Source: a virus (taxonomy: Duplodnaviria; Caudoviricetes). Taken from it: DNA of 64,000 nucleotides. This document shows, piece by piece, positions 7,828-57,317 of this stretch (positions within the stretch are counted from its first letter, which is position 1; every line of letters starts with the position of its first letter). The DNA lies in the IMG/VR virus record IMGVR_UViG_3300027759_000044, one strand, 5' to 3'. The translations under genes and the position numbers were made by a program. The notes below the pieces were generated by a model. The model worked only from the letters and a program-made list of their open reading frames with translations, did no database searches and had not been told where the DNA came from.

Positions 7828-7834
7828 ATAAATA
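7828..7834 (+). promoter_or_regulatory. T4-like late promoter element (ATAAATA) upstream of gp25-like gene
   Basis: Intergenic ATAAATA resembling T4 late TATAAATA; SD-like GAGGA lies before ATG 7852. Confidence 0.65.
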
Positions 7835-7851: not shown

Positions 7852-8301
7852 ATGCCATCATACATTGGGTTCAGTACAATTAACGCTAACAAGCCACGAT
7901 CTACTAATTTGCCGGCCGGTCTTGCAGGTGGAGTAGGTTCTATGGTACAACCAGTTATACCTGGAAAAAAATACAGATTAGTAGACGAATCACTTGTAAT
8001 ACAAGATTTTATTAACTCATTAAATATTCAACAGGGACAAAAAGTAGGCAATCCTGGTTATGGTACTACTCTTTGGAGTTTTGTATTTGAGCCAAATACG
8101 TTTGATGTACAACAACAATTAGAAACTGAAATTAGACGAGTTGCTAATCAAGATCCGAGACTAATACTTAATACTGTTAGTGCATTCCCGCAAGAAAACG
8201 GTATATTAATTGAGGTAGAAATGGCTGTTACACCATTTAATAACGCACAAACACTTAGTGTTTTCTTTAATAATAGTACAAATACAGCAGTAATTCAATA
8301 A
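7852..8301 (+). CDS. Baseplate wedge protein gp25-like
   Basis: LNIQQGQKVGNPGYGTTLWSFVFEP...IRRVANQDPR is the typical gp25/GPW pattern; lies directly before gp6. Confidence 0.85.
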   Translation: MPSYIGFSTINANKPRSTNLPAGLAGGVGSMVQPVIPGKKYRLVDESLVIQDFINSLNIQQGQKVGNPGYGTTLWSFVFEPNTFDVQQQLETEIRRVANQDPRLILNTVSAFPQENGILIEVEMAVTPFNNAQTLSVFFNNSTNTAVIQ

Positions 8302-20700: not shown

Positions 20701-23700
20701 TGTATAGCGCAATTACTAATAATACATTAGATAATTTAGATTATATTGATCCATTACAAGGTAAAATATTAGGATCAGTAAGACAAAATATTGATGTAGT
20801 ATCAAATGTTGATCCGGCTGGTTATAATAGTCCTGATAATACGCAGGGCTCAATTGTTTGGGGCGGCGCCCAAGTTGGACAATTATGGTTTAACACAAGT
20901 ACTACACGATTTGTAAATTATCATCAGGATGATGTTGTATATAACAGTAAATGGTGGGGACAAATATTCCCAGGCAGTGATGTAACTGTTTATAGTTGGA
21001 TAACAAGTAATGTTCCCCCGATATCATATCCGGGCCCGGGGACACCGTTTACTATTGACAATTTTGCAATTGAATATATTTTAAATGCAACCGGTATATT
21101 AACTCCTGTATACTTCTATTGGGTAAGAAATACTAATATTATATTTACCAAGCTTGGTAAGACTTTAGCTGATAGTATTATTCAATCTTATATTGCGTCA
21201 CCTATTAATTCAGGAATCAGTTATTTTGCTCCTTTAGACCAAGATATATTTGCTTTATATAATTGTGGAGACAACATCAATGCTAATGATACAGTACTAC
21301 ATATAGGTTATTCTACTGGAACAAATGATGATGTTTCACATAGTTTATACAATTTAATTCGTACTAATTATGCTGACGATTTCTTACCTGGATTACCTAC
21401 TGTTGATGGATCTGGCGTTCCTAAATCATTATATGATAGAATGTTAGATAGTTTATGTGGTGTAGATGAATCCGGTGCAGTAGTGCCTGACCCATTCTTA
21501 CCTAAACCAGTTCAATATGGTATATATGCAAGACCAAGACAAGGTTTCTTTGTCAATAGATTACTTGCATTGAAAAATTATTTAACATATGCTAATGACG
21601 TACTAGCACAGTATCCTATTAGTGAAACACGCAGGTCATTGTTTTTGTTTACTGAAGGAGCGATAAATCGTTCAACCGACCCAGTATATAATACTGATCC
21701 AACAAGTCCTTATTATAGTGTCAATCCATGGACAGGTCCAATTATACCATTCTATAATACTACGGATTATTGGTATTATATTAATTGGTGGGCAACTGGG
21801 TATGATAATAATACTAAATCAGCGTTACAAGTACCTATCTATGCTGACTTAGCAACAATAAATGCCACCGCTGGTTTAATTGTTACTGTTACAGCAAACG
21901 GAGATGGTAAATCTGAAACCTATGTATATACTAATTTAAATATATGGGAACGTATTGGTTTACAAGACGGTACTATTGAATTTAGTAGTAATTTGTGGGA
22001 TTATTCGGTGGCTAGATTAGGCTTTGGTGACAATTTCTTTGATACTACGCCGTATGATACATATCCATCACAAGAAACACGTAGTATAGTTAGAGCATTA
22101 AATGAAGAAATTTATACTAATGAATTATTAATCTTTAGAAATAAAAGTTTAATTTTATTATTTGAATTCATTCAAAGTGAATCTATTGAATCACAGAATT
22201 ATTTACCATGGTTAAATAAAACATCATTTGTTGATGTTGGACACACCATACGTGAATTATTACCATTAGAAGTATTCCAATCAGATAATCAAGATTTCTT
22301 AGCCGGGTATGTTAATGAAGTTAAACCGTACCATGTAGTTATTAAAGAGTTCTTATTTAAATATACAGGTTCTGAGTTATATGAAGGAACTATAACTGAT
22401 TTTGATTTACCAGCTCAGTACAATACTGAAATTCAACAGTTTATAACTCCTGAATTAGTATACACTAATCCAAGCGGTGATAATCAATATTTACCTACAG
22501 ATCCTATATGGCAAACTGCTCCGTATTCTGAGTGGTTTAACAATTATGGATTAGGTATTACTGGAGTTGATGATTATCAGATAACCGTGTTGGCATCATA
22601 TGTTTCATTAAATTCGCCGGCTATGGCCGTAGATAATGCGTATGGTTTCCCAATTAATGGTATTATATTAATAGGTGATGAATTAATAGGATATTCTAAT
22701 GTTGACCGATCAAATAATACACTTAGTGGATTAACACGTGGTATTGATGGCACACCAATATCAATACATATTCCGGGAGAAATAATTACAATAAATTTAC
22801 CTGCAGTATTAGTATTAAATAGTGGTCGTGGATATACTGAACCTCCTAGAGTAATTGCATATATTGATACTACTATATATCCAGAACCAAGACGTGCCGC
22901 AGTACTACAAGTAGTAATGAATTTAGATTCAATATTGCGTGTAGATGTAATTGATCCAGGTGATGGATATGTTGTATTACCTGAAATTATAATCGATCCA
23001 TCTGTATCAGTGACATTTACGTCAGACGATGTTAATTTGATATCAAATACAATATCATTACCTTCACCATTATTACAAACTGGTGACTTGATAAAATATA
23101 CTATAGGAACAAATACCACTGCCGTTGGTGGATTAGATGTTGACCAATATTACTATGTACATGTATTAGAAACTACACCAACATTTGTTGTTGCTTTATA
23201 TACTACGTATAGTGATGCTATTAACGATAGTGATCGTGTATTCTTGTTTAATATTGGTTCAGGAGTTAATAATGTATTAAGCGTTAGTGCTAGAGCAAGT
23301 TGTGTATCAACTTCTTTACCAATAAGAGAAAATCAAATTACATTGAGATTTGATAGAACATCGTACAATTCAGAATTAACTGACTGGGTAGGAGGATCAT
23401 TTTATGGAAGTTTCTATGCTGGATTATATAATAATTCAGAAAGAATTTCTAGTTCAAGTATTGGATTACAATCAACTCAACCTGACATTGACACCATATT
23501 AGCCAGTGCGGCAGGCGCAGTTTTTGAAATTGAAGATGTTACAAACGTTGAAGTACTTACTTGGAGCTCACGTACTAGAATTGTATCAGCGATTAATACC
23601 AGTACTAATGTAATAACAATAACTGCTTCAGACGGTGGTGCATCACTTATCAATAGTGATACAATAACTAATCCAACTATAGGTTTTTATATTGGCATGC

Positions 23701-26700
23701 CAATTCAATTTATAGGATCTGTTGCCGGTAACATAATAGTAGAAACTACTTACTATATTAAATCATTAGTTGATGGAGATAAAATTACATTATCTGCTAC
23801 AATATCAGGTGGGGTGCCCGGTGGAGAATTGTCAATGGCGGGAACAACATTAGGATCAGCTGGTTTAACTGCTTATGTAGGTGAAGTAACTAACACCGCG
23901 GTAGTTACTATGTTTTATCCCGGTATATTAACAGCTACAGCTACTACAAGTACAACCAATTCAATAACAGTTCCGTTAACAGGTAGTGGTTTAGGCGGAA
24001 CTACTGGATTCTACACAAATTTACCAGTATTTTTTGTAGGTACTGTATTTGGTGGTGTTATTGAAAATGAGAGATATTATGTTACTACTGTAATAGACGA
24101 TGAAACATTTACTATGTCTACAACAGAAGATCCTGTAATGGTTAGTGTCACCAACACTACAGCTAGTACGGATTATATTACGTGTGATGATGCAACTGGT
24201 TTATCATTCAATGACCCTATAATATTTAATAGTATGAGTGTTAGTGGATCTGCCGTATCAACATTTGGTAATATAGCAGACGGGACCATTTATTATGTAA
24301 GTGCTATAATTAATGATACTAATTTTCAAATATCTACTGTACCTAATGGTGGAACATTTGGCTTAGCTGATCAGGCTGCAGGTACAGGTACAGGATGTAC
24401 AGGAACAGATCAAAAAGATATAGTACAATTAACTACCGCTACAGGTACAATGACATGTAATGTTGGATTACCGGTTAGTCCGGGTCAAGTTACCGGACAA
24501 CAATTTACATTCTATCCAACATCAACAACTACTGTATCTTCTCCTGCATTCACTCAAGGCAATTTGATTACCAGAACTATTAAGAATGCATTAGCTGACG
24601 GAGATTATCTATCATTAGAATCTGAAACCGGTGGTATAACTAATGTTTATGTAAATATGCCTATTAGGGTAGCTGCATCATATGGTGGATTAAGTACAGG
24701 TACAACATATTATGTTAAAGAAATTGGAACAGTAACTACTGAAGTAATTCAAACTACGTCAGCAAACGTATTAATTTCTACAGGTACAGCTGGATTTTAT
24801 GTTAATATGCCTATAACCTTTACAGGGTCTACCTTGGGCGGAACTATTGAAAACACATTGTATTTCGTCAAAACTGTAAATGTTAATGGAACTGATTTTA
24901 CTATCACGGAATCACTGGGTGGCACAACACTTGCCTTGAGTAATGATACAGGATCAATGACAGTAACCGGAGAACCCTACATTAAGGTGTCATCAACACT
25001 GGGAGGCGGGGTCTTACCACTATCAGATTCAGTAATTAATACAAGTACAATATTGACACAGTACCCAACATCAGCTCCGACATTTGATGTAAGTTGGATA
25101 TTAGGTGGGTATAGTGTTGAGGTCACCGGAGCAGGTACAGGATATGCAATTAACAATACCTTTACTGTATTAGGTGCAGCATTATCTGGTACCACTCCAG
25201 CAAATAATTTAGTAATGACAGTTAATACTATCGGAACTAATGGACAAATAACATCATTAATTAATTCAGGTACTCCTCCTGAAATTGTTGAACAATATTA
25301 CTTAAAAGTAATATCAACAACAGAATGTGAAGTGTATAGTGATTCACAATTACAAATTCCAGTTACTGGAATAAACTTCCCGTTCACCTCAGGTGATTAC
25401 GCATTATTACCGGAACCATTCTACTTTAATCAAAGTATCGTCAAATACAACAATAGAGTTTATCAATGTATTGTCAGTAACAATGACACAGAGTTCATAT
25501 TTGGTAAATGGGAAGAATTACGTAGTGACAGTAGAAAACTAAATGCCCTAGATAGAATTATGGGTTATTATCAGCCAACTATTAATATGCCAGGTTTGGA
25601 TTTGACGCAATTAGTAGATGGCATTATTTATCCAAATAGTACATACCAAGATAACGCTTTCCCTCCCTCTGAAGAATACACATTAGATACTATCTTACAG
25701 GATCAATTGTTTAGTCCACTTCAAGTGGATGTTACTTCTATAGTATGGAACGGTACTACATATTTTGCCCCAGCCAATACACCTACATATTCAGATATCA
25801 CTAATAGTACTAATGGAACTACTTGGGTATCTAATAAGTTATCAAATCAACCAATAGCATTAACTGATATAGTATACGCAGATACAAAATATGTCATGAG
25901 TTCACAAAACAATGTAACTCCTATATTAGTAAGTACTGATGGACTTGTCTGGACTACTACTGGGCTAACAATTGGGTCAGTTTCAATAGATAACACAAGT
26001 TTAAATAGTGTTGATTATTTTAACGGCATCTATGTTGCTGTTGGTGATAATATTGTATCTAGTGTGGATGCTTATACCTGGATAGAAAGATTTAACTTCA
26101 CTAATATGGTTTTATATGGTGTATCAGCTATAACTATTACTAATTTTAATGGATTTATTGCTGTTGGAGTTGGCCCTGATTATAGCGTTATCCCTACAAT
26201 AACACAAAGTGTTATATTAAAAAGTTTAGACGGAATATCATGGACAAATATTACACCATCTGCATCAGCCGAAACATTATATGGTGCATCTAGTGGTAAC
26301 AACACTATTGTAGTTGTTGGAAATAACGGAGCTATATTTACAAGTATTAACGGTAGTAACTGGAATAATATTAGTACCGGTAGTGCTAACTTAAGAGATA
26401 TTACTTATTCTGATAGTCTAGGATTATTTGTTATTGTTGGAGAAACTGGATTTATTAGTACATCTGATGGTAGCACATGGTCAGTAGAAACATCAGGTAC
26501 TACTGAAAATCTAAATAGCGTAATATGGAATAGTGATTTAAGTGAATTTATTGTAACAGGTAATAACAATGTTATACTTAAGAGTACAAACGGCACCAAT
26601 TGGACAATTAGTAATATATTTATTACTGACCCTACTATATATGATGTTCAAGGTGATTCATTCACATCGGGTTATGGTCCTGAAGAATTAGTACCGGGAG

Positions 26701-35703: not shown

Positions 35704-37131
35704 ATGAGTGAAAATATTAAAGGTGATGAAATTGGCAAAGTTGATGGCAAATTTCAAAGCTTATATCAAAACTCATCTGAACACGTATTAAAAGAACTTA
35801 ACAACGTAAGCCCAAGCTTTTGTTTAGCTAAATGGTATAATGTAAGCATTCATATCCCTACTGGTAGAACACATAGTTGTTATCATCCTCCCACACATCC
35901 TATCCCAATTGAAGAAGTAAAAATTGATGTAAGCGCATTACATAATACCAAATATAAAAAAGAACAACGTAAGCTGATGTTGGAAGGTAAACGTCCTTCT
36001 GAATGTAATTTTTGCTGGGAGATAGAAGATAGTGGTAACCAGTTAAGCGATAGGGCATATAGAAGTAAAGATGTATTTGCTCCGGGTATAATTGGTGAAG
36101 CCATACAAATTGGTTATGAAGGTAATCCTAAGCCTAGATATGTAGAAGTTAACTTTAATCAAGCATGTAATTTTAAATGCACCTACTGTAGCCCACACTT
36201 ATCATCCGCATGGATGCAAGATATTGAAAAGAATGGGGCTTTTATTCTATCCGATCATTGGCATAATGATATGACTTGGATGAAAGAATCCAATATGATT
36301 CCAAACAACAGGTCAGATAATCAATATATTGAAGCATTTTGGGAATGGTTACCTGACATTTATCCCACACTACAAACATTTCGTATGACCGGCGGTGAGC
36401 CATTAATGGATAAGAATACATTTAAGATGTTTGAGTATGTAAAAGATCATCCAAAAAAAGATTTACAACTAAGTCTGACTAGTAACTGTTGTCCACCTGA
36501 AGGACAGTGGGATAGATTTATGAATGGTTTAAAAAATATTACTGATGCTGATGCTGTGGATCACTTTATGTTATTCTGTAGTTTAGACAGTTGGGGCAAG
36601 CAAGCTGAATATATCCGTACTGGAATGGATTTTGAACTATTAGAAAAGAATATTATTGACTTTTTAATCAATAGTAAAAAACATAGTTTGACTTTTATTG
36701 TAACGTTTAACGCATTAAGTTATACAGGCTGGTTAGAGTATGTTAAACAAATACATAACATGCGTAAGACATATTGTACTGATAGGCAACTGATTTGGTT
36801 TGATGTTCCGATGTTATCTAGCCCCGAATGGCTTAATCCTAGAATTTTTCCTGAACTTATTACGGAGCTTGAAAAATCTGTTAAGTATATGCTTGAACAC
36901 AAAGAAGCTGACCACAATAGATTTAAAGGCTTCAAAGATTTTGAAATCAACAAAGTTGAAAGACTTATTGATTGGGTAAAAACTGAAAACAATTTTGACA
37001 GAAGTTTAGCAATGAAAAACTTTTATATGTACTTTACCGAACATGATAAACGTAGAGAAACAAACTTTTTAGAAACTTTCCCCGAATTAACTGAACAATG
37101 GAATAAATGTAAGGACGAACATGGACGATAG
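35704..37131 (+). CDS. Radical SAM protein with N-terminal Twitch/SPASM-like Cys domain
   Basis: CNFKCTYC (CxxxCxxC), TGGEPLM; N-terminal FCLAKW...GRTHSCYHP...CNFCW. Confidence 0.9.
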   Translation: MSENIKGDEIGKVDGKFQSLYQNSSEHVLKELNNVSPSFCLAKWYNVSIHIPTGRTHSCYHPPTHPIPIEEVKIDVSALHNTKYKKEQRKLMLEGKRPSECNFCWEIEDSGNQLSDRAYRSKDVFAPGIIGEAIQIGYEGNPKPRYVEVNFNQACNFKCTYCSPHLSSAWMQDIEKNGAFILSDHWHNDMTWMKESNMIPNNRSDNQYIEAFWEWLPDIYPTLQTFRMTGGEPLMDKNTFKMFEYVKDHPKKDLQLSLTSNCCPPEGQWDRFMNGLKNITDADAVDHFMLFCSLDSWGKQAEYIRTGMDFELLEKNIIDFLINSKKHSLTFIVTFNALSYTGWLEYVKQIHNMRKTYCTDRQLIWFDVPMLSSPEWLNPRIFPELITELEKSVKYMLEHKEADHNRFKGFKDFEINKVERLIDWVKTENNFDRSLAMKNFYMYFTEHDKRRETNFLETFPELTEQWNKCKDEHGR

Positions 37132-38479
37132 AGTTGTATTTGTAAAAAGCGTAAGAGATAGATTAAACACAGTAAGCCCAAGCTTCTGTGCGATGAAATG
37201 GTTACACCAAACATTGTATCTACACACCGGTGATAATCATAGCTGTTATCATCCTAGACCACATCATATCCCGCTAGATGAGATTGCCGTTGACCCAAGT
37301 GCATTGCATAACACTAAGTGGAAAAAAAAACAACGTAAAAAGATGTTAGAAGGTGAGCGTCCGGATGAATGTTACTATTGCTGGAATATTGAAGACCTTG
37401 AAGGAGATCATATCAGTGATAGGATGATACATAGCGCAAGCGATTTTAGTGAACCATTCATTGAAAAACTAGCACAAATGCCATGGGATGCACCTGTTAA
37501 TCCACGTTATTTGGAAGTAAGTTTTGGTAATGCGTGTAATTATCGGTGTGGTTATTGTAGCCCGCAAGCTAGCACAATGTGGATGGAAGAAATTAAAAAA
37601 CATGGTAACTATGATTTAACATACAATCAATATGGTATTGATTTTTTAACATCAGGTACATATTATGGACCTAAAGAAGAAAACCCATATATTGAAGCAT
37701 TTTGGAAATGGTGGCCTAGCTTAAGAAATGATTTACATACATTACGTATTACAGGTGGAGAACCATTAATGAATCCTGGTGCTATGCAGTTCTTTGACTT
37801 GTTAGAGGATGAACCCGCGCCAAACTTAGAAATAACATTGAATAGTAACTTGGGAGTTACATTTGATAGAGTTGATAGATTGATTGAACGTGTAGGATCA
37901 TTAACATCACAAAATAAAATACGTAAGTTTAGTTTTTTTACAAGCATTGAAGGTTGGGGAGAGCAAGCTGAATATATGCGTACAGGTATGAAGTGCGACC
38001 ATTGGGAAAGAAATATGAGAGCTGTTATGAAAACCGGCGCAACTATTAACTTGATGTGTACATTCAATGTATTATGTGTAGCAACATTTGAAAAGTTGTT
38101 ACATAAGGTTATTGAATGGCGTAAAGAGTTTGGTAAACATAGTGTTGGTCTTGATACTCCGTATTTGAAAGAACCACCCCATTGGATGATTAACATATTG
38201 ACACCTGATTTTATTCCATATATGGATAAGACGTTGAAGTTCATTCAGGATAATCCAGAACACTTTCATGCAGTAGAATATGAAAAATTTAAACGTGTTA
38301 CAAATTATATGAAAGAGCATGTGATTAGTGAAGACAAGATCCGCGCTGGACGTAGAGATTTCTATAGTTTCTTTACTGAGAATGATAAACGTTTGGGTAC
38401 GGATTTAATTAAAACATTCCCTGAATATAAAGACTTCTATGATTTGTGTAAGGATGTTTATGACAACTATGATAAATGA
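37121..38479 (+). CDS. Radical SAM protein, tandem paralog of 35704
   Basis: CNYRCGYC, TGGEPLM; shares many blocks with the upstream gene. Confidence 0.9.
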   Translation: MDDRVVFVKSVRDRLNTVSPSFCAMKWLHQTLYLHTGDNHSCYHPRPHHIPLDEIAVDPSALHNTKWKKKQRKKMLEGERPDECYYCWNIEDLEGDHISDRMIHSASDFSEPFIEKLAQMPWDAPVNPRYLEVSFGNACNYRCGYCSPQASTMWMEEIKKHGNYDLTYNQYGIDFLTSGTYYGPKEENPYIEAFWKWWPSLRNDLHTLRITGGEPLMNPGAMQFFDLLEDEPAPNLEITLNSNLGVTFDRVDRLIERVGSLTSQNKIRKFSFFTSIEGWGEQAEYMRTGMKCDHWERNMRAVMKTGATINLMCTFNVLCVATFEKLLHKVIEWRKEFGKHSVGLDTPYLKEPPHWMINILTPDFIPYMDKTLKFIQDNPEHFHAVEYEKFKRVTNYMKEHVISEDKIRAGRRDFYSFFTENDKRLGTDLIKTFPEYKDFYDLCKDVYDNYDK

Positions 38480-39692
38480 AAATAATAAACATTCATGGTG
38501 TGTAAATGCATACCATGCTCTTAGTGCTAACAATGACGGTAGTACTAAAACATGTTGTATGATCGGGGAGGAATACAATAAATTATCTAAAACTTCTAAT
38601 GAATACTACATTGGAGTCAAAAGTATTAAAGAAAACTTTGACTGTGACGCCGCACAAAATCTTAGAGATAATCTTTCAAGGGGTATAAAAGATAATTCCT
38701 GTCGTCTATGTTGGCAAGAAGAAGAAGGCGGGAGAAAAAGTAAACGTCTACGTGATAATGAAAAATACCTACATGCTATTGAATTTGATGGTCAGGCTCC
38801 GTTTACAGGACTTGCTAAGGTAGAATTAAACTTAGGTAACAACTGTAACATTAAATGTAGAACATGTCATCCTACAATTAGTTCTACCTGGATGAAAGAG
38901 GCATTTGATTTGGATCACGCACCCCGCGGCACTACATATAAAACATTTAGTGTAGGTATGAAAAAGTATCACCAACATTATGATGATGATAGCAGTTTTT
39001 GGCCTGATCTTATTGAAAACTTAGAAACAATTAAACAATTTGATTTTTATGGTGGCGAACCTTTCTTAAGCAAAAAGATGTGGGAAATATTACGTATATG
39101 TGTTGAACGTGGATACGCCAAGGACATTGAGCTACATTATAATACAAATGGAACAGTATGGCCTAAAGATATTGAGTTATGGAAACACTTTCGCTCAGTG
39201 AATATTAGCTTTAGCATTGATGGTATTGGTGAACGTTTTGAATATATGCGTTATCCTGCAAATTGGCAAGAAGTTAGAGCAAATATGAAAAAAGCTGTAG
39301 ACTTTAATATTGAACATAATAACTTATCATTAAGTTGGTGTATGACTTTAAGTAGTCTAAACATATATTATTTGCCTGAACTATTAGATGAGTATTACAA
39401 AAACTGGACAAGTATGGGATTCTATTTGAATTTAGTTCATAATCCAAATCATTTCAATATAAGCAAAATGTCACCTGAAGCTAAACAAGCCGCATTAGAA
39501 CAACTAAACAGTATTCCAAAAGAATATGAAAATGCATGGTATCAACTTCCCGGTATTATTGGGTTTATGATGGCCGGGGAATATGATCCCACAACATGGA
39601 ATTATATGCTTAAAACAATAGATAAGCATGACAAATATAGAGAGCAAGATTATGCTAAAACATTTAGTGATTTTTCAAAGGCAATAAGATGA
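38460..39692 (+). CDS. Radical SAM protein with N-terminal Twitch-like domain
   Basis: CNIKCRTC, YGGEPF, YNTNGT. Start moved to ATG 38460 because of AAGGA at 38450-38454; 38469 is also possible. Confidence 0.88.
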   Translation: MTTMINENNKHSWCVNAYHALSANNDGSTKTCCMIGEEYNKLSKTSNEYYIGVKSIKENFDCDAAQNLRDNLSRGIKDNSCRLCWQEEEGGRKSKRLRDNEKYLHAIEFDGQAPFTGLAKVELNLGNNCNIKCRTCHPTISSTWMKEAFDLDHAPRGTTYKTFSVGMKKYHQHYDDDSSFWPDLIENLETIKQFDFYGGEPFLSKKMWEILRICVERGYAKDIELHYNTNGTVWPKDIELWKHFRSVNISFSIDGIGERFEYMRYPANWQEVRANMKKAVDFNIEHNNLSLSWCMTLSSLNIYYLPELLDEYYKNWTSMGFYLNLVHNPNHFNISKMSPEAKQAALEQLNSIPKEYENAWYQLPGIIGFMMAGEYDPTTWNYMLKTIDKHDKYREQDYAKTFSDFSKAIR

Positions 39693-40981
39693 GTGAACAA
39701 TTCTGGAAATCTAATAACTTAATGCAGATGCACATTGAGTTAACTAATTTATGTAACGCAGCCTGTCCTATGTGTGTTAGATTTTATAACAATAGTCCAC
39801 ATACTAGACCTGATTTAGAATTTGGACAAATCACTATTGATAAGTTTAAAAAATATTTCCCACCAGAAATTATTCGTAAATGTAATCTTATTTTATTTTG
39901 CGGCGTGCACGGAGATCCATGTATTGCTAAAGATATGTATGAGATATGTGAATATATCTATGAATGTTCTGAAACTACTGCTGTGCGTGTTAATACCAAT
40001 GGGGGTATGCGTAAAAGTGATTGGTGGGCTAAACTAGGCGCATTGTTTGCTAAACGAAAAAAGAGTTTAGCCGACGATTTTTGGGAAATTATATTTAGTA
40101 TTGATGGGTTAGAAGATACCAATCATTTATATCGTAGAAACGTAGAATGGTCAGCATTGATGGAAAATGTTAAGGCATTCGTTAATGCAGGTGGAGGAGC
40201 ATCTTGGGATTATTTGATATTTAAGCATAATGAACATCAAATACAAGAGGCAAAACGTTTTAGTGAACAGATTGGCTTTAGAGAGTTTATCCCTAAAAAA
40301 GCTTTGGGTGTAAGCTATGATGTTGAGAATAAGTTGACCATCATGCCTGTATTGAATAAAGAAGGTGAATTAGATTATACAATTGAATCACCTGTTAATC
40401 CAGAAAATAGAAACTTACCTAATGCTGATGGCACCTTACCATTAATGTATTGGCCCTTTAAGGTTGATGAATATCGCAAACTTAAAGATGATAAAGAATC
40501 TATAAGAATGAATTATGATATCAACGCTGATTCAATTTATCAGACTGCAATTAATAATAAAAACTTTGATGAGCAAGATTCATGTAGTATTATTTGCAAA
40601 TCCAAGACACCATTAGGCGGCAAAGAAATATTTGTTGATAACTTTGGCAGAGTTATGCCTTGTTGTTATATCGGGACACACTTAAATGGTAAATATAATG
40701 ATATTGCATCCATGCAATTATACAATCATATGAATCAATATGGCTGGGAGCATTTTAGTTTAGATACACATACATTAGAAGAAATACTTGATGCCGGACA
40801 CTTAGATAGAGTATTTGCTGATTCATGGAAGAAAGACTCAGTTAAGAATGGTAAATTAGCATATTGTGCTAATACATGCGGTAAGAAATCAGCTATTGAT
40901 AAAATATTTTCACATGAATTGAATGATAAAGCTAGTCAAATGGAAAAGTTTAGAACACAAAATGAACATAGAGTTGATTGA
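39689..40981 (+). CDS. Radical SAM protein with C-terminal SPASM/Twitch domain
   Basis: CNAACPMC, GVHGDP, FSIDGLEDTN; C-terminal FVDNFGRVMPCC...CANTC. Confidence 0.9.
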   Translation: MSEQFWKSNNLMQMHIELTNLCNAACPMCVRFYNNSPHTRPDLEFGQITIDKFKKYFPPEIIRKCNLILFCGVHGDPCIAKDMYEICEYIYECSETTAVRVNTNGGMRKSDWWAKLGALFAKRKKSLADDFWEIIFSIDGLEDTNHLYRRNVEWSALMENVKAFVNAGGGASWDYLIFKHNEHQIQEAKRFSEQIGFREFIPKKALGVSYDVENKLTIMPVLNKEGELDYTIESPVNPENRNLPNADGTLPLMYWPFKVDEYRKLKDDKESIRMNYDINADSIYQTAINNKNFDEQDSCSIICKSKTPLGGKEIFVDNFGRVMPCCYIGTHLNGKYNDIASMQLYNHMNQYGWEHFSLDTHTLEEILDAGHLDRVFADSWKKDSVKNGKLAYCANTCGKKSAIDKIFSHELNDKASQMEKFRTQNEHRVD

Positions 40982-43038
40982 TGGACAGCAAAAAACAGTC
41001 AGGATATAAAAAACTATTTACATTAAAAGTATCTAATCCTAAACCCAAAGTTGATACTGATTTTGATGATAAACATACTAAAGTTATGGCAGCAATATTG
41101 CCATATGCTAGAATTAAACCACAAAAAAACTTAATTGATGTTGCTACTGAGGATATAAGTCGTAAAACAAGTGTAATGTATATGTTATTGCCTCAATGGG
41201 CAAAGATGTTCGCACCCTATAATGTAGCCAGACTTGTTGCCCTAACCAAAGCCGCTGGGTATAGAACCACCGCAGTTGATTTAAATGCTAAAGCAGGACA
41301 AGAATATTCTAAATGGGATATTGACTTTGATCCATGGAGTAGTGCAAGAGAATGGAAATGGTTAGAAAACACATATCATACAGAGCTACATAAACACTTA
41401 GAACCTTTGTTAGAAAAATACTTAGACTATATCGGTGAAGTTAAACCCGATGTTATTGGCTTTAGTATATATTATTGTAACGAAGAACCAACTAAGTGGA
41501 TGGCAAAAGAAATAAAAAAACGTTATCCGAACATTGTTATAATGGTAGGAGGTCCGCAATGTCATCAGAGTTATTGGACACCCATACCTGAGTTTGATTA
41601 CATAGTATCAGGTGAGGGTGAAAAGATGGTGTTAGAGATACTAGAAGAAATAGAATCTGGTGTAAGACCAACGGAACAAAAATGGTTAAGACAAGAAGAG
41701 GGTCAACGATTAAACTTAGATGCATTACCTAGACCTGATTACAGTCATTTCAACTTTAGAGAATATGCAATGCCCAATGGTGCAAACGCAGAACTAAGTA
41801 GAGGGTGTGTAGCTAAATGTGTGTTTTGTAGTGAGACACACTTTTGGAAATTTAGAGGAAGGCAAGCAACATCTATTATAGATGAAGTAAGTGATTTATA
41901 TCACAACTATGGAATTGATGTTATTTGGTTTTTAGATAGTTTAGTTAACGGCAATCTTAATGAACTTAGAGCATTTGCTAAGGGTGTTGTAGCTAGAGGA
42001 TTAAAAATACATTGGACCGGATACGCAAGATGTGATGGTCGTATGGATTTAACTTACTTAAAAGACCTAGCGGATTCCGGATGTTTAAGTTTAAGCTATG
42101 GTATTGAATCAGGATCAAATAAAGTATTAAAAGCTATGGATAAGGGAGTTACTGTTGAAGAAATAGAACAGAACTTAAGAGATGGAACTATAGTAGGAAT
42201 AGAAGCATTCACTAATTGGATTGTAGGTTTTCCGGCAGAAGAACACCAAGACTTCTATGAAACACTGACCTTAATTTGGAGAAATAGAAACAACAATATT
42301 ACAGATATTGCCGGTGGACATGGGTTTACTATTCCTCCGGATACCATTGTAGGACAAGCATCAGAACAATATGGAATCATTAAAGCTTATTACTTAAACA
42401 ATTGGATTAAGGAAGACTTTACCAATAGTAAACTACATAGATTAGTTAGAGTAAAGACGTTCAACATACTATTACACTATCTTGTAACCAAGCTTGATAT
42501 GGGTTGTAGTGGTATGAGACCAACAATTGAATCATTTTATACTCTTAATGTTAAAAACAACACACCACTAGAGATGGAGTTTGAGTCATTTGATTTCAAT
42601 ATAATCAATACAGGTAATAATTTTGCTGATTCATTGATGAATGAAATATGGCCTTTGTTAAGACTGTTTTGGAAAGCACAGGGCGCATATGATATTGAGA
42701 TTATATTTGACCCAGCCCAGGATTTAAATGAGTTTAGTGATAGATTAGCAGGAAACTATTCAGCTAGTTATAAGTTCTCAATAGATGAGAATGGTAATTG
42801 GAATGCTAATTTTGATTGTGTTTATAAGCAAGATGATAATGCATGGAGATATTCGGATTATTCGAGAGCAGATTCAGTTGCAGCCTCACGTGCTAGACAA
42901 TTAGCAGAACCAGACTCTGGTGGCATAAGTACCTGGACAATGGAAAAATATAAAAAACATATGACATTGTTAGATGAGTTAATATTAGTAGATTTCTCAT
43001 TTGAACACAAATACATTAGTAATGGAATTTGGAACTAA
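40981..43038 (+). CDS. Cobalamin-binding (class B) radical SAM protein
   Basis: B12-binding-like domain PDVIGFSIY...VGGPQ...VSGEGE, then SRGCVAKCVFC, YGIESGS, WIVGFP. ATG 40981 overlaps the upstream TGA. Confidence 0.88.
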   Translation: MDSKKQSGYKKLFTLKVSNPKPKVDTDFDDKHTKVMAAILPYARIKPQKNLIDVATEDISRKTSVMYMLLPQWAKMFAPYNVARLVALTKAAGYRTTAVDLNAKAGQEYSKWDIDFDPWSSAREWKWLENTYHTELHKHLEPLLEKYLDYIGEVKPDVIGFSIYYCNEEPTKWMAKEIKKRYPNIVIMVGGPQCHQSYWTPIPEFDYIVSGEGEKMVLEILEEIESGVRPTEQKWLRQEEGQRLNLDALPRPDYSHFNFREYAMPNGANAELSRGCVAKCVFCSETHFWKFRGRQATSIIDEVSDLYHNYGIDVIWFLDSLVNGNLNELRAFAKGVVARGLKIHWTGYARCDGRMDLTYLKDLADSGCLSLSYGIESGSNKVLKAMDKGVTVEEIEQNLRDGTIVGIEAFTNWIVGFPAEEHQDFYETLTLIWRNRNNNITDIAGGHGFTIPPDTIVGQASEQYGIIKAYYLNNWIKEDFTNSKLHRLVRVKTFNILLHYLVTKLDMGCSGMRPTIESFYTLNVKNNTPLEMEFESFDFNIINTGNNFADSLMNEIWPLLRLFWKAQGAYDIEIIFDPAQDLNEFSDRLAGNYSASYKFSIDENGNWNANFDCVYKQDDNAWRYSDYSRADSVAASRARQLAEPDSGGISTWTMEKYKKHMTLLDELILVDFSFEHKYISNGIWN

Positions 43039-43041
43039 ATA
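43035..43041 (+). promoter_or_regulatory. Late promoter element CTAAATA, 5 nt before ATG 43047
   Basis: CTAAATA-TCACT-ATG, overlapping the upstream stop. Confidence 0.55.
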
Positions 43042-43046
43042 TCACT

Positions 43047-43808
43047 ATGGATAAAATAGATATAGATTCATTTGATAGGATAGTAGCGTACGGTTGTAGT
43101 TATACTGCAGGTGATGAGTTGTTAGACCATGAAATATTAGGTATTAGTTTTGAAGCATGTAATAAATTAAAAAATTCTTATAAAAAATTATATCCTTATA
43201 ATTTTTATAAGAATTTACCAAAAGATGTTTTATATAAAATAGAAACAACCAACCCACAAGTGTCATGGGCCGGACAGTTAGCTAAACAGTTGAATAAACC
43301 TTTTCTAAATAGAGCAAAAGGTGGCTCTGGTATAGATGAAATTTTGTTCACTGTGGTATCTGATAGGACAAATAAAACCATATCGGATAGAGATTTGATT
43401 GTAGTTGGATTAACCTATCCAGAAAGAATACTTCATATAACTGATAACCATATATGTACTTTACATCTAGGTAATCAACATGGCTGGCCGTCGGCCGATA
43501 CACATAAAGCAAGTGTTGAATTATGGAATAATAGTAATACTTTGTTTAACTATTACAAATCATTATTCATCTTAACTAAATTGGGATTAAATATTAAATT
43601 ACAACCAATTTGCATGCCTTCATTTCAGGATATAAATAAAAAACTATGTGATCAGGTTATTATGCCTTTAAGGGATGAAATAGCAGACTACATGTTTTTT
43701 ACGACAGAAACGTTAAATGTAGATTTGCCATACAAGTGTGGTTTTGGACATGTAGCAATTGAGGCTCATATTGAGTTAGCAGACAAAATTCACAAACAAT
43801 ATTTTTAA
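43047..43808 (+). CDS. SGNH/GDSL-fold hydrolase or acyltransferase-like protein
   Basis: Block I AYGCSYTAG, block II RAKGGSG, C-terminal GH. The track start 43029 is TTG; ATG 43047 preferred. Confidence 0.6.
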   Translation: MDKIDIDSFDRIVAYGCSYTAGDELLDHEILGISFEACNKLKNSYKKLYPYNFYKNLPKDVLYKIETTNPQVSWAGQLAKQLNKPFLNRAKGGSGIDEILFTVVSDRTNKTISDRDLIVVGLTYPERILHITDNHICTLHLGNQHGWPSADTHKASVELWNNSNTLFNYYKSLFILTKLGLNIKLQPICMPSFQDINKKLCDQVIMPLRDEIADYMFFTTETLNVDLPYKCGFGHVAIEAHIELADKIHKQYF

Positions 43809-43810
43809 AC

Positions 43811-44641
43811 ATGAGTAATACTTTTAAATTAAACGACATAAAACGAGTAGTAGCTTACGGATGTAGTTATACAGCCGGAGTTGAGTTAGCAGACGCTGAT
43901 TTTATTCCGCATCTTACTTTAGACGAAATTAATGCTGAGAAAAAAGCATTAGGGCAACATCTGTTTTATTCAAAGTATCCTGCGGTACTGTTTCAAGCTC
44001 CTCCGGAAAAGAAACAACTTGAGTATAATAGGGCCTGGCCAAAACATTTGATTAATTATTTAGAACTGCCGTTAGATTATTTAAATCGTTCAATTGCCGG
44101 GGCATCAATGGAAGCGATCGTATTTGCTATAGAACATGATTTACACAATGGCATAATTAATGATGATGATTTGATAGTAGTAGGTGTAACTAGCGCAGAT
44201 AGGATATTAACAATTAATGATGAAGGCTCGCCTAGTAGCCTAGTATTACATGATTTAGATTCTAGATGGACTAGCCAAGAGTTTAGAAAAATGTTTACTA
44301 TGGAAATTGCTAACGATCATTGGTTATTATACAATTGGTATCGTTCAGTAAAGTACATTGATATGTTATCAAAAACACTTAACAATAGGATATTACAAGT
44401 ATATTTACACACCAATGATCAGGCCTATAAAAATGTATTCAATGTACATAATAATGAATTTTTAAACATAATCAATTCATTGGAAAATATTGAATCAATT
44501 TTGGATAAAGATTTGTCTTTTGGTAAGGTAGAACCATATTGGAGTCATAAAACAGAACACGGCTTTTATCATCCTTACGAGATTCTACATAAAAATTTAG
44601 CTAAGATATTAGCAGAAAAAATTAAAGAAAAATATATATGA
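43811..44641 (+). CDS. SGNH-fold protein, tandem paralog of 43047
   Basis: AYGCSYTAG, RSIAGAS, FYHP. Confidence 0.6.
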   Translation: MSNTFKLNDIKRVVAYGCSYTAGVELADADFIPHLTLDEINAEKKALGQHLFYSKYPAVLFQAPPEKKQLEYNRAWPKHLINYLELPLDYLNRSIAGASMEAIVFAIEHDLHNGIINDDDLIVVGVTSADRILTINDEGSPSSLVLHDLDSRWTSQEFRKMFTMEIANDHWLLYNWYRSVKYIDMLSKTLNNRILQVYLHTNDQAYKNVFNVHNNEFLNIINSLENIESILDKDLSFGKVEPYWSHKTEHGFYHPYEILHKNLAKILAEKIKEKYI

Positions 44642-45861
44642 AAAAAGAAACCTTTTGTTCCTTACCGTTTAGTGCATTATTCTTAGGAAGTGATGGTGGT
44701 GTAAGACCCTGTTGTTCATTACGAGGAGAGCTAGGTAATATCAATGATAATTCAATTGAGGAAATTATTCACGGGAAAATTGCTACTTCTATTAGACAAT
44801 CCATTATTAATAATGAGATGCATTCTATGTGTAGCCAATGCCAAGAATTAGAGTCCAGAGGCGCTAGAACAGAACGTTCAGGTACTATTGAAATGTTTGA
44901 CAAGTTTAAAGATTATACCGAAAAAGACTTTTTATTAGAAAAACTTGACCTACGTTGGAGTAATACTTGTAACTTAACATGTAATTATTGTTATGAATAT
45001 TTTAGTTCTAAATGGGCAGAAATTAAGGGTATTAAAGTAAACGCAAATAAAGAAACAGCAGAAGAAAAGGTATTCTCATTCATTGAACAAAATTTACAAG
45101 ACAATCCAAACGTAAGATTTAATGTTAACTTACTAGGAGGCGAACCTTTATTACAAAAACCTAACTCTAGGCTTATTGAGTTAATTAAAAACAATTCAGA
45201 TATATACATTTTGACTAACTTAACAGTACCTCTAGAAACTAATAAAGTAGCAAATTTACTGTTAGAAGGTAATAATGTTGCATGGGGAATTAGTTTTGAG
45301 ACAATAGGTAATAGATTTGAATATGTAAGAAAAGGTGGAGATTGGAACCAGTTAGTTAAAAATCTACGATATTTAAATTTAAACAAGGTTAAGCACATTG
45401 ATTCTCATCCTTTATACTGTGTGTATAGTGCGTTTAATTTAGTAGAATACTTTGAGTTTTTAGGAGAAGAAGGATATTTTCATAAACAATATTGGCAAGT
45501 ATTACAGAATATTCCCGGTCTTGATGTATTTCAATTACCTTACCCAATGAAGGTTAAAGCTATTAAAGAGTTAGAGACATGTTTTAATCGTTATGAAAAT
45601 ACTTTTGATTTGTCATTACTAAGATCCGTTCATAGTGGATTAGTAAGTTCTATTGACAAACAATATTGGGATAGTACCGCATGTTTTACATGGCTTAATG
45701 ATTTAGATAAATCTATACCTGGTCAAAAACAATCATTTATTGATAATTGGGCAGAATTGTATGATGATATGTTATCTACTTATAATTGGCTTACTGATAG
45801 TAATGGAAATATGAATCCTAAAACAGAATATGAGAGACCAATCTATGTTAGAAAGATATAA
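44638..45861 (+). CDS. Radical SAM protein with N-terminal Twitch-like domain
   Basis: FCSLPF...DGGVRPCC...CSQC, then CNLTCNYC, LGGEPL. Confidence 0.9.
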   Translation: MKKETFCSLPFSALFLGSDGGVRPCCSLRGELGNINDNSIEEIIHGKIATSIRQSIINNEMHSMCSQCQELESRGARTERSGTIEMFDKFKDYTEKDFLLEKLDLRWSNTCNLTCNYCYEYFSSKWAEIKGIKVNANKETAEEKVFSFIEQNLQDNPNVRFNVNLLGGEPLLQKPNSRLIELIKNNSDIYILTNLTVPLETNKVANLLLEGNNVAWGISFETIGNRFEYVRKGGDWNQLVKNLRYLNLNKVKHIDSHPLYCVYSAFNLVEYFEFLGEEGYFHKQYWQVLQNIPGLDVFQLPYPMKVKAIKELETCFNRYENTFDLSLLRSVHSGLVSSIDKQYWDSTACFTWLNDLDKSIPGQKQSFIDNWAELYDDMLSTYNWLTDSNGNMNPKTEYERPIYVRKI

Positions 45862-55000: not shown

Positions 55001-55812
55001 CTATTGAATCTAAGAATATATTGATTACGAATATGGGAGGCACACGTATTGTTGTACCCAAAGAAGCTAATAATTATGTTGAAAAGGAGTTGTATGATTA
55101 TCCATACATTTCCAAAGCAACAAAGATAGGACAGTCAACGCCACTGGATATAGTCTTCCTAAGTAACGGTGAAACCGGAGCTGACGAGAACTACGAACAC
55201 TTACTGAACGTGACTAAAGGACTGAAAAATCGTGTTGTTAGAGTCGACGGGGTCAATGGTCGTGTTGCTGCCTATCATGCAGCCGCAATTGCTAGTCAAA
55301 CATCTTGGATGTTTACGGTGTTTGCTAAATTAAAAGTTAATAGCAAGTTTGACTGGACATGGCAACCTGATAGATTACAAGTACCTAAACATTATATCTT
55401 CTATGCAAGTAACCCTGTTAATGGATTAGTATATGGTCACCAAGCTATGATTGCGTACAACAAACAGATTACATTAAGTAATATGGGCAAAGGATTAGAC
55501 TTTACATTAGATAGTGAGCATGAAGTTGTTGAGATTAATTCGGGTGTAGCACGTTACAATACAGATGAGTTTAGTACATGGCGCACTAGTTTCCGTGAAG
55601 CTATTAAGTTACGATTAGATGATAGTGCTATTAGTAGACACAGATTGAAAGTATGGACAACCGTTGGTGAAGGAGACTATGCCCAATATAGTACACAAGG
55701 TGCTCAACATGCTGTAGAATACTTTGAACAAGTCAATGGGGATTTAGACAAATTACGACTAAGTTATGATTGGCCTTGGTTGCAAGAGTATTTTAATACT
55801 AAATACAATTGA
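52063..55812 (+). CDS. 1249-aa repeat protein built from GT-A-like fragments
   Basis: About 12 copies of FDFSWxPD-type motifs; C-terminal domain (DIVFLSNGE...RVDGVNGRVAAYHAAA...NGLVYG...WRTSFREA) parallels the 34749 protein. Confidence 0.7.
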   Translation: MLRDVFYYGNKPNVHPREKHAIDLVDARQQATTEHFWIINEYCDYTNFDWDWDFDFLPDEEVWTGEHNNVWPNKQNKDSGTWLCSTQYSDIIIYRADVEPVNRKNTKHNNWVILDKIDETKFDFSWEPNPYDPPYIYKWGCKFYPAEIKHYVEYHVEGATNIKYMPDVVELSPEWDKWKINYSIDKSSFDFSWRPDPREPAFIYMFGNTQYLAETMPTVEYHVSGATEQKFIDDLSMRAKILPNSTRFEHLENCDGIDYSWVPDPWSPPYIYAWGNQWNKPEDKISIQYVVEGATEYKYMEDRATRKPCMDNWEIPPYVIKNSFDFSWEPNPHDPPYIYQFGTVHQKTGGPRYTVPGATELKYIDTVKAEVVAWRFTNWLIPRNVDQASFDWSWHPDDTDPPYIYQFPSTWSKTGGPKFTVEGATETKYIDSLIAKVKQDMTHWSIPEGLDTSEFDFSWHPDVEDKPYIYQFGTQWQKTNGPVFTAPLCDETTPIKYIDIIKAKYLPNKTNWIIPAGFDETKFDFSWHPDATSPAYIYQFGTLLDDVHLEDGPKYVTPDNDGTIVLMENILLSDTVVQYPQYYIETTLEALIEQHIDEIFWALRKNINYTKFDFAWQPTKEQAFNINTFGSPDSELTQTYLVNGKMWQKGYRDISFIENTKLDEEYLSKLFKQVDAFFVDKGNKESATRFEQLKIHFPTLQKTRYLNSWVDTINRCINKSTTELCWILNSELDYTNFDFNYYPNPWQMTMVHVFGTQWSHWGSTFMVNKETFAEDTKYVKIIEHLTNLNFVKTKRAIASNCLYDVYLIDYGNDGVNDIVSLIESKIKRENVYTIKYETDYLTTLKNMLYELGIKKDHYIWVCSSICDYTNFDFTYICDPFSLEQLHVFPSDKQKFGDTFFINVNKLRILVEDLDKLENIEKINFNQHQKVKRLPAPSFVTDADTHLNFKKHSYNFPYAVFTTSDNLIAPDINDEPISMWSIESKNILITNMGGTRIVVPKEANNYVEKELYDYPYISKATKIGQSTPLDIVFLSNGETGADENYEHLLNVTKGLKNRVVRVDGVNGRVAAYHAAAIASQTSWMFTVFAKLKVNSKFDWTWQPDRLQVPKHYIFYASNPVNGLVYGHQAMIAYNKQITLSNMGKGLDFTLDSEHEVVEINSGVARYNTDEFSTWRTSFREAIKLRLDDSAISRHRLKVWTTVGEGDYAQYSTQGAQHAVEYFEQVNGDLDKLRLSYDWPWLQEYFNTKYN
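55799..55805 (+). promoter_or_regulatory. Late promoter element (CTAAATA) for the tmRNA precursor
   Basis: Inside the last codons of the upstream gene; 5 nt later is G55811, just before the first strand that pairs with the coding piece. Confidence 0.55.
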
Positions 55813-56090
55813 AGTTATTGCTGTATGAAGCGATGTAAAATAAGTTCAAGACGCCGGGGCAGTGCCGGCCATCTCCACCTAAGTGTATGAGGTATATTTA
55901 GGTGGGGATGACACAGGATCGATTGGGCAAAGAGTAACAAAGTGGACAGCTCGGCAAAGCAGAAGCCGTTAGGGTTGGGGGAACTCGGCCGTAGAAGCAA
56001 AAAAAGTAACCGCAAACGACTCACAGTTCGCATTGGCAGCTTGATAAAGGCTACCTAGGGTAAGACATACCTCGTAACAGAAACTCAGAA
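55811..56090 (+). ncRNA. ssrA: Circularly permuted (two-piece) tmRNA
   Basis: T-arm GCCGG-GGCAGTG-CCGGC (55853-55869), acceptor 3' strand CATCTCC-ACC (55870-55879), then 5' strand GGGGATG (55904-55910) with G3.U70 pair. GTTCAA 55844-55849 pairs with TTGGGC 55923-55928; GTTATT 55814-55819 with AGTAAC 55933-55938. Tag GCA AAC GAC TCA CAG TTC GCA TTG GCA GCT TGA TAA (56012-56047) = ANDSQFALAA. Ends approximate. Confidence 0.93.
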
Positions 56091-56116
56091 AAGGCTCTTC
56101 GGAGCCTTTCCTATTT
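56090..56116 (+). terminator. Intrinsic terminator-like hairpin after tmRNA
   Basis: AAAGGCTC-TTCG-GAGCCTTT: 8-bp stem with C(UUCG)G tetraloop and an interrupted U-rich tail. Confidence 0.75.
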
Positions 56117-56151
56117 AATAAATATCATGATATTTCTCAACTAAAAAGCAA

Positions 56152-56158
56152 ATAAATA
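56152..56158 (+). promoter_or_regulatory. Late promoter element (ATAAATA)
   Basis: Intergenic, upstream of SD AGAGGA and ATG 56184. Confidence 0.6.
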
Positions 56159-56183
56159 CTATCTCTAGAGGATGATAATAAAA

Positions 56184-57317
56184 ATGAAAAGAATTCTCGC
56201 TATAGTTGCCATGCTGGGTATGGCATTCACTACGCAAGCACAAACTACTACTACATCAGGAACAACCGGCGGTACAACCACTGGCACAAGTACACTGATT
56301 AATCAAAACTCAGCAATATCAGGTGGATACTCTTCTACCAGTTTAGTAGATACTAATAGTACAAGTAACAGTACCAGTACGGTTACTTCTAATAGTAATA
56401 CTACTAGTAATAGCAACAGCACCAGTACCGCTGCCGTTAATAGTACTAGTGCAAATACTAACAATAATACTAGTACTAGCGTAAACACTAACAATAACAT
56501 CAATAGTGGTACAAGTACTGTTAACAATAACAATGTTAGCTCCGGAACAATGACATACAATAACAATAACGTTAATACCGGAACAATGACTTATAACAAT
56601 AACAATGTTAGTACAAGCACAAGTAATAACACAAACATTAACAAAAATGAAAATACTGGTACAATGACATACAATAATAACAATGTCAGTACAGCCACTA
56701 ATAACAATAACAATGTTAGTACAAGCACAAGTAATAACAATAACGTTAATACTGGTGATATGACTAATAGGAATATCAATACTTCAACAAGTGCTAGTAC
56801 TTCAGTTAACAACAATGTTAATCAAAATAATTCAGTTAATACAAATATTCAACAAGGTGAGTTAACCAACAAGAATATTAATCAAACTGAGATTACACAA
56901 CGTGTTATTCAGCCGCCACCAACTGCTGTAGCTCCTGCTATGTTGTCAGGTGGTAATGCTGACCTATGTTCTACTGGTAGTAGTGGTAGTGTACAGACGC
57001 AAGTATTTGGTGTAAGTTCAGGTGGAACTATACGTGACATGAATTGTGAACGATTAAAATTATCTAAAACTCTATACGATATGGGTATGAAAGTGGCCGC
57101 AGTGGCTACTATGTGTCAAGACCGTCGTGTGTTTGATGCTATGTTAGCCGCAGGAACACCTTGCCCATACGAAGGCAAGATAGGTGAACAAGCTAAAGCA
57201 CAATGGGAAGCTAATCCAGATAAGATACCTAAAGTAGATGAGGAAAAACTAGATGACACTTATAAGAAAGTTGGCATTGGGGCTGTTCTTGGTCTTATTG
57301 TCAACAAAATATTCTAA
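56184..57317 (+). CDS. Secreted/membrane protein with Asn/Thr/Ser repeat region and Cys-rich C-terminal domain
   Basis: Signal peptide MKRILAIVAMLGMAFTTQA; GTMTYNNNNV repeats; DLC...NCERLKLSKTLYDMGMKVAAVATMCQD...GTPCP; C-terminal hydrophobic anchor. ATG 56184 fits the SD better than 56172. Confidence 0.75.
   Translation: MKRILAIVAMLGMAFTTQAQTTTTSGTTGGTTTGTSTLINQNSAISGGYSSTSLVDTNSTSNSTSTVTSNSNTTSNSNSTSTAAVNSTSANTNNNTSTSVNTNNNINSGTSTVNNNNVSSGTMTYNNNNVNTGTMTYNNNNVSTSTSNNTNINKNENTGTMTYNNNNVSTATNNNNNVSTSTSNNNNVNTGDMTNRNINTSTSASTSVNNNVNQNNSVNTNIQQGELTNKNINQTEITQRVIQPPPTAVAPAMLSGGNADLCSTGSSGSVQTQVFGVSSGGTIRDMNCERLKLSKTLYDMGMKVAAVATMCQDRRVFDAMLAAGTPCPYEGKIGEQAKAQWEANPDKIPKVDEEKLDDTYKKVGIGAVLGLIVNKIF

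Follow-up and report, generated by a model that had tools for sequence, protein, structure and literature searches.

The DNA analysed here, called the window throughout, is a 64,000-nucleotide (nt) stretch from a virus of the Caudoviricetes (IMG/VR record IMGVR_UViG_3300027759_000044). Positions 55812-56113 of its plus strand hold a phage-borne, circularly permuted (two-piece) transfer-messenger RNA (tmRNA; ssrA) gene, identified by Rfam models and by direct reading. The permuted order is seen in the T-arm and CAUCUCC-A-CC (55853-79), which lie upstream of GGGGAUG (55904-10). A first reading of the letters without database searches (the sequence-only reading) had proposed a permuted two-piece tmRNA at 55811-56110, and every sequence feature that it listed was present where it had been placed.

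Two Rfam covariance models matched over their full length and above their cut-offs. RF04321 (tmRNA_permuted) aligned at 55819-56044, over model positions 1-213, with 104.3 bits against a cut-off of 47 (E 3e-19), and RF01850 (beta_tmRNA) aligned at 55778-56113 with 98.6 bits against a cut-off of 84 (E 1e-28). With two full-model matches at these scores, a chance match is excluded by far. The whole gene of a near-identical relative (L007) scored 99.3 bits with the beta model and 76.2 bits with the alpha model, and RF04321 gave 109 and 75 bits on the relatives L032 and L036, compared with 104 for the window gene. The cyanobacterial tmRNA model had no match on the closest relatives, L007 included.

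Both ARAGORN and Rfam had been suggested as checks in the sequence-only reading. The Rfam part supported the gene; ARAGORN, run on the 64-kilobase (kb) window, did not report it. The same program recovered 5 of the 32 family loci tested (from the set L001-L149) and missed 27, and its silence here is a failure of the detector and no evidence against the gene. The tmRNA gene is real and probably functional. The best explanation overall, which we hold with good confidence, is a functional phage copy of ssrA, circularly permuted and two-piece, that tags the products of stalled translation. Gene identity, the covarying fold, selection on the tag, conserved synteny and near-identical contigs from RNA libraries were established directly. 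The parts of the locus are as follows.

55780-55809, plus strand: promoter region, TAAATAC with an overlapping weak sigma-70-like pair
55800-06, plus strand: TAAATAC late-type element, directly upstream of the tmRNA gene
55812-55879, plus strand: acceptor piece (Rfam alignment; covariation in 30 family members)
55820-24 and 55844-49, plus strand: P2 3'-side strands GCUGU and GUUCAA (Rfam alignment, covariation)
55853-57 and 55865-69, plus strand: T-stem GCCGG/CCGGC (direct reading)
55858-64, plus strand: T-loop GGCAGUG (direct reading)
55870-76, plus strand: acceptor 3' strand CAUCUCC, then discriminator A at 55877 and CC at 55878-79, followed by U (direct reading)
55880-55903, plus strand: intervening spacer of 24 nt (fold; closing stem covaries across the family)
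55904-55950, plus strand: 5' part of the coding piece (Rfam alignment, covariation)
55904-10, plus strand: acceptor 5' strand GGGGAUG, in which G3 at 55906 pairs with U70 at 55874
55911-22, plus strand: D-loop analogue ACACAGGAUCGA (Rfam alignment)
55923-28 and 55946-50, plus strand: P2 partner strands UUGGGC and ACAGC (Rfam alignment, covariation)
55952-55990, plus strand: pseudoknot 1 region, which folds as two hairpins (folding)
55952-55 and 55965-68, plus strand: first hairpin, CGGC/GCCG (folding)
55973-90, plus strand: second hairpin, GGUUGGG-GGAA-CUCGGCC (folding; covariation)
56012, plus strand: resume codon GCA
56012-41, plus strand: tag frame GCA AAC GAC UCA CAG UUC GCA UUG GCA GCU, read as ANDSQFALAA
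56042-47, plus strand: tandem stops UGA UAA
56058-56072, plus strand: post-tag hairpin GGGUA-AGACA-UACCU (folding; fits the beta_tmRNA consensus)
56090-56119, plus strand: intrinsic terminator and 3' end of the coding piece, AAAGGCUC-UUCG-GAGCCUUU then CCUAUUUAAU

The 5' end at 55812 was placed by the promoter position and by the onset of family conservation. All seven pairs of the 7-base-pair (bp) acceptor stem form, the alanine determinant G3.U70 included, and the inter-piece P2 helices are GUUCAA:UUGGGC and GCUGU:ACAGC. In the predicted fold, the acceptor stem and the 24-nt spacer make a single continuous 19-bp hairpin; positions 55870-55912 fold at -26.7 kcal/mol (z -8.0), and the whole gene has a folding z of -3.2. 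A true pseudoknot 1 was sought at 55952-90 by folding and covariation and was not found, two hairpins being predicted instead. Pairing of GUUAU at the 5' end with GUAAC near the 3' end is possible but has no support from covariation, and it was set aside. The conserved block around the post-tag hairpin runs on into CCUCGUAACAGAA. The terminator hairpin with its UUCG loop spans 56090-56109 and is followed by CCUAUUU; it corresponds to the 3'-terminal hairpin of the beta_tmRNA model, and relatives carry other hairpin sequences at the same place. The sequence-only reading had named G3.U70 (G55906.U55874), helices between the pieces, an ANDSQFALAA tag with a double stop (56012-47), a T-loop GGCAGUG instead of the TTCRANY type and a UUCG terminator, and all of these could be read from the gene.

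Relatives were collected by a pattern of the T-arm and acceptor, which occurred in 21 IMG/VR contigs, and by a looser pattern, which occurred in at least 120 IMG/VR viral contigs. In the matches listed there are 59 distinct genes, whose spacers vary from 24 to 383 nt, the 24 nt of the window gene being the shortest. Covariation was counted in an alignment of 30 family sequences. While G3.U70 is unchanged in all 30, acceptor pairs 4 and 5 alternate between G-C/C-G and U-A/C-G, and seven sequences have two-sided changes in the acceptor. A T-stem pair occurs as G-C in 24 sequences and as C-G in the other 6; at a P2a pair, 19 sequences have A-U and 11 have G-C; and at an outer P2 pair, G-C and A-U occur 14 times each. 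Two pairs of the second hairpin (55973-90) covary, changing from G-C to A-U, the stem that closes the spacer covaries across the family, and the post-tag hairpin of one relative (L002) is altered on both sides (CAGUA/UACUG).

The terminal A of CCA is absent from the window gene, in which CC is followed by U (55878-80). Among the matches listed, CCA is encoded in 65 of 71 family contexts and the terminal A is unencoded in 6; these six, namely the window and relatives such as L001-L003, L005 and L007, all have the CAUCUCC acceptor. CCA ends can be completed after transcription, and an unencoded CCA does not disqualify a gene. As the terminal A is unencoded, maturation would have to include 3' trimming and addition of the A, going by general transfer RNA (tRNA) biology. 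The shortest spacer (24 nt), the unencoded final A of CCA and the upstream TAAATAC element are traits specific to this lineage.

Four marine-type relatives (L006:6674-6971, L011:10055-10352, L014 and L019) have spacers of 135-183 nt with a stop-free frame, given as 83-99 codons. The motif ..GWMN..ER.. occurs in all four frames and GLTGYNTQGM.VYP in three. To judge by the conserved residues and the synonymous type of the changes, the excised spacer of these relatives may contain a small protein gene; the 24-nt spacer of the window is too short for one.

The matches listed contain 42 distinct tag frames, of which 39 end in Ala-Ala, by way of 11 codon pairs, and ANDSQFALAA is encoded by nine nucleotide versions. 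The window tag starts at an Ala resume codon and finishes with a hydrophobic Ala-Ala degron before its stops. By the pattern of these frames, the tag is selected as a peptide and kept through synonymous changes. This bears on the alternative that the RNA is a decoy, binding SmpB, alanyl-tRNA synthetase (AlaRS) or ribosomes and so damping host trans-translation or tmRNA-linked signalling. Such an activity has a precedent in the tag-less tmRNA-like form of mycobacteriophage DS6A, which inhibited endogenous tmRNA when expressed in E. coli (PMC11915505), and the unusual T-loop and unencoded CCA end of the window gene could mean altered activity. A pure decoy would not need a tag, however, and here the tag frame is intact, with clear purifying selection on the peptide across the family, and the resume codon, stops and G3.U70 are all retained. 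We consider a decoy unlikely, and a functional tmRNA that tags stalled products remains the reading that we prefer.

The sequence-only reading had described an alphaproteobacterial architecture with a beta-like tag, and searching the halves separately agreed with this description. For the tRNA-like half alone (55812-55948) the best model of the clan was alpha_tmRNA (RF01849), with 55.2 bits, above the cut-off of 50; for the tag half alone (55949-56118) it was beta_tmRNA, with 41.4 bits, and the alpha model was not the best fit for this tag and 3' domain. By model fit, the gene is an alpha/beta mosaic. It shares with the alphaproteobacterial two-piece tmRNA (RF01849; Caulobacter) the gene order, a tRNA-like half that by itself exceeds the family cut-off, the D-loop analogue AGGAUCGA and the type of T-loop. 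The Rfam alpha consensus has the T-loop GGCgGUA, in keeping with the GGCRGUA type that the sequence-only reading had given for alphaproteobacteria, and the D-loop analogue AGGAUCGAC; the window gene has GGCAGUG and AGGAUCGAU. It differs from RF01849 in that its tag and 3' domain fit the beta model better, and its tag has 10 residues and is of the ANDxxFALAA kind. With the betaproteobacterial form (RF01850), which is the best whole-gene model, it shares a tag resembling the consensus ANDE.FA.AA, the post-tag block GGCUA..GGG...CCU.GU.AC.AA and the 3'-terminal hairpin, whereas the beta-consensus T-loop UUCGAUU and D-loop analogue UGGUUUCGA are both missing from the gene. PMC9004378 cites Keiler, Shapiro and Williams (2000) for the alphaproteobacterial and Sharkady and Williams (2004) for the betaproteobacterial two-piece tmRNA, and we follow its citations here.

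The carrier is an uncultured freshwater giant phage. Baseplate and virion proteins are encoded in the window (PHROGs and Pfam), and the wedge protein is about 33% identical to Rak2-like, Atu_ph07-type jumbo phage homologues. Completeness is rated at 27-33% for three syntenic IMG/VR contigs (95-116 kb), and we therefore take the carrier to be a jumbo myovirus with a genome of about 350 kb by the completeness estimates of its relatives. Many studies of fresh water and lakes have this DNA in their metagenomes.

To the left and right of the tmRNA gene, the window runs collinear, at 77-86% identity, with two independent contigs (L007 and L010, 95 and 109 kb). Three contigs from unrelated contexts (L001, L003 and L005) have only the tmRNA in common with it, at 80-87% identity. 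Taken together, these contexts mean that the gene is both stably kept and mobile. In several relatives (L005:80-4356, L145:1148-7607, L126:1386-9952 and L068) the tmRNA lies inside or beside arrays of 19-25 tRNA genes; no tRNA genes were found in the 64-kb window. That the gene moves between otherwise unrelated flanks, and often sits with tRNA arrays, which are known to be exchanged, would suit a passenger, that is, a cellular ssrA that the phage, or a cassette mobile between phages, acquired recently and that has no role in the phage cycle. We regard a passenger as quite unlikely: the gene has held the same location in phages whose nucleotide identity has fallen to about 80%, it is widespread among viral contigs, and it has its own promoter in the style of this phage. 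Furthermore, a scan for the T-arm and acceptor in one genome per species, over 185,579 species, gave no permuted cellular counterpart. It is hardly credible that the gene is an integration-site remnant, a stretch of host tmRNA with which a temperate phage restores its target after integration; tmRNA genes are frequent integration targets of genomic islands and prophages (PMC9004378 and PMC4383910), but both halves, the tag frame, promoter and terminator are present here, which is more than a 3' fragment, an integrase was not found among the scanned open reading frames (ORFs) of the window, and the carrier is a jumbo myovirus. A functional phage ssrA copy keeps its place ahead of these alternatives.

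The matches in the 185,579-species scan were metagenome-assembled genomes (MAGs) of Gracilibacteria with one-piece tmRNAs, plus a few chance hits. On five Candidatus Gracilibacteria MAG contigs (L023, L024, L026, L027 and L030) the one-piece tmRNAs end in the GGCAGUG T-loop and CAUCUCC-ACC, and this likeness to the phage gene may be due to either convergence or shared descent. Gracilibacteria read UGA as Gly. They were rejected as a clue to the host, as the standard code leaves the long ORFs of the window open (among them one of 5917 amino acids (aa)) and the tag ends in UGA. The sequence-only reading had offered the tmRNA as a host clue, and this did not hold up. The gene is a poor host clue, because the same tmRNA family occurs in many unrelated phage contexts and its sole cellular matches are the one-piece genes of Gracilibacteria. 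An alpha/beta mosaic, together with one cassette in unrelated phages, is a warning against naming a host from a phage tmRNA.

TAAATAC appears from its distribution to be a late-type promoter element of this phage. It is scarce in the window (12 found compared with about 30 expected), and TAAATA is about six times denser in the intergenic gaps of the window and stands 13-25 nt before five gene starts, including those of the baseplate genes at 7852 and 8356. Copies of TAAATAC occur on the plus strand in short intergenic gaps at 7829, 8331, 32534, 55800, 56153 and 62225. The late element that the sequence-only reading had placed before the gene is credible for this phage as TAAATAC at 55800-06; its timing we infer. 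The exact T4 late consensus TATAAATA was rejected as a promoter, being depleted in the window and never ahead of a gene. Overlapping TAAATAC is a sigma-70-like pair that matches at 9 of 12 positions, TTGCAA (55780-85) and TACAAT (55804-09) with an 18-nt gap, and 19 relatives have a near-perfect sigma-70 promoter (10-12 of 12) at exactly the position of this weak pair. We likewise infer the form of RNA polymerase that would read this region.

RNA libraries contained near-identical sequences. A 168-nt contig from a lake metatranscriptome (run X18) covers 55928-56081 with two differences and one gap, and 55917-55969 is matched without a difference by a 53-nt contig (run X16). The protein-coding flanks 55500-55805 and 56112-56383 had no contig in four RNA-type libraries, in which the coding piece was by far the better covered. 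These flank gaps were considered as a sign of a discrete transcript or of processing and rejected, since missing cover proves nothing. One contig of run X16 joins 55969 back to 55812 through 14 other letters, which could come from misassembly of related tmRNAs or from a relative that is arranged differently.

Transcription from the promoter region with its late-type TAAATAC would start near 55812, stop at the terminator near 56113 and give a precursor of some 300 nt, in which the acceptor stem and spacer would form the 19-bp hairpin. Ribonuclease P would cut 5' of G55904, the 3' trailer beyond CC55879 would be trimmed, and the CCA-adding enzyme would supply the missing terminal A. Two products are expected, the acceptor piece with about 65 nt and the coding piece with about 210 nt, joined by the acceptor stem and the two P2 helices. 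Host AlaRS would charge the RNA through G3.U70, and with SmpB, presumably that of the host, the charged RNA would be taken into stalled ribosomes, which would then go over to translating the tag frame, add ANDSQFALAA and stop at UGA-UAA, after which host proteases would degrade the tagged protein. The presumed benefit to the phage is that ribosomes stay available when the supply of host tmRNA drops or non-stop mRNAs increase in the infected cell.

Several points weigh against a functional, tagging tmRNA. Processing, charging, use of SmpB, timing and benefit to the phage are drawn from general knowledge of tmRNAs, which counts against the reading as regards processing, charging and tagging. The unencoded A would add an extra step to maturation, and the T-loop departs from the usual sequence, though it is of the alphaproteobacterial type. 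Four related contigs (95-116 kb, each about 25-33% of a genome) yielded no smpB. For the window, the sequence-only reading had likewise noted no smpB, and this is true of the ORFs of at least 95 aa scanned against Pfam or PHROGs, the 5917-aa ORF excepted. The local sigma-70 scan was at chance level, with 7 found against 7.2 expected. Many of the RNA-library contigs are just 90-95% alike and run into unlike sequence, which points to relatives as their source, and contigs of this kind cannot show the ends or the strand of an RNA.

Two-piece tmRNAs are not rare in phages, which corrects the expectation of the sequence-only reading that phage tmRNAs are mostly one-piece. Buchholz et al. (2022; PMC9004378) reported a two-piece ssrA in the Methylophilales phage Melnitz; of the 133 distinct phage tmRNAs that they counted, 53 were two-piece, and 50 of these came from aquatic phages. 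For huge phages, both tmRNAs and SmpB were described by Al-Shayeb et al. (2020; PMC7162821), and the tmRNA database holds 79 phage sequences (PMC11915505). With two-piece phage tmRNAs and huge-phage tmRNAs both published, the window gene is of a kind that is already known. Like the ssrA of Melnitz and the pelagimyophages, it is a circularly permuted tmRNA gene of a large aquatic myophage, has an alphaproteobacterial-type tRNA-like domain whatever the host class, and has its own promoter and terminator. The Melnitz gene is reported to lie behind an early promoter, whereas that in the window lies behind the late-type TAAATAC; Melnitz and the pelagimyophages are marine, whereas the window phage is from freshwater, and its gene is without an adjacent glutamine riboswitch or other Rfam element. 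The phages of PMC7162821 resemble the carrier in exceeding 200 kb and in having many translation genes, and differ in that SmpB was reported in some of them, while none was found here.

Less covered until now are a gene with no deposited relative detectable by blastn and one that ARAGORN recovers poorly. In a blastn search of 50,697 deposited phage records the gene had no real match, even when hits up to E 5 were allowed. ARAGORN was used in the surveys of both PMC9004378 and PMC7162821; the huge-phage survey relied on this program, which misses the window gene. As this usual detector misses most genes of this family, surveys of phages based on it would under-count, and phage tmRNA counts obtained with ARAGORN are likely too low. 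Tentatively, the tmRNAs with a GGCAGUG T-loop might form a separate, largely phage-borne permuted lineage and not repeated captures from alpha or beta hosts. Such a lineage would combine an alpha-type tRNA-like domain with a beta-type tag domain, travel as a mobile cassette among freshwater and marine giant phages and, in this phage, be driven by a late element; we think this possible but doubtful. If true, published phage tmRNA counts would be seriously too low, since ARAGORN misses most of these genes. The window gene adds a well-documented case of large aquatic phages that bring their own ribosome-rescue RNA alongside tRNAs and, with its 24-nt spacer and unencoded CCA, offers a compact natural example for the study of two-piece tmRNA maturation.

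Elsewhere in the window, a single ORF of 5917 aa (11766-29519) directly follows the baseplate wedge gene. Six of eight consecutive ORFs at 35704-45861 have a Radical_SAM match, four of them above the Pfam cut-off; a B12-binding domain is also present in one of the ORFs, and a SPASM domain in one. They are followed by a sugar C-methyltransferase and an epimerase on the minus strand and then by a carbamoyltransferase. By these domain matches, 35704-45861 is a large modification cluster in the phage.

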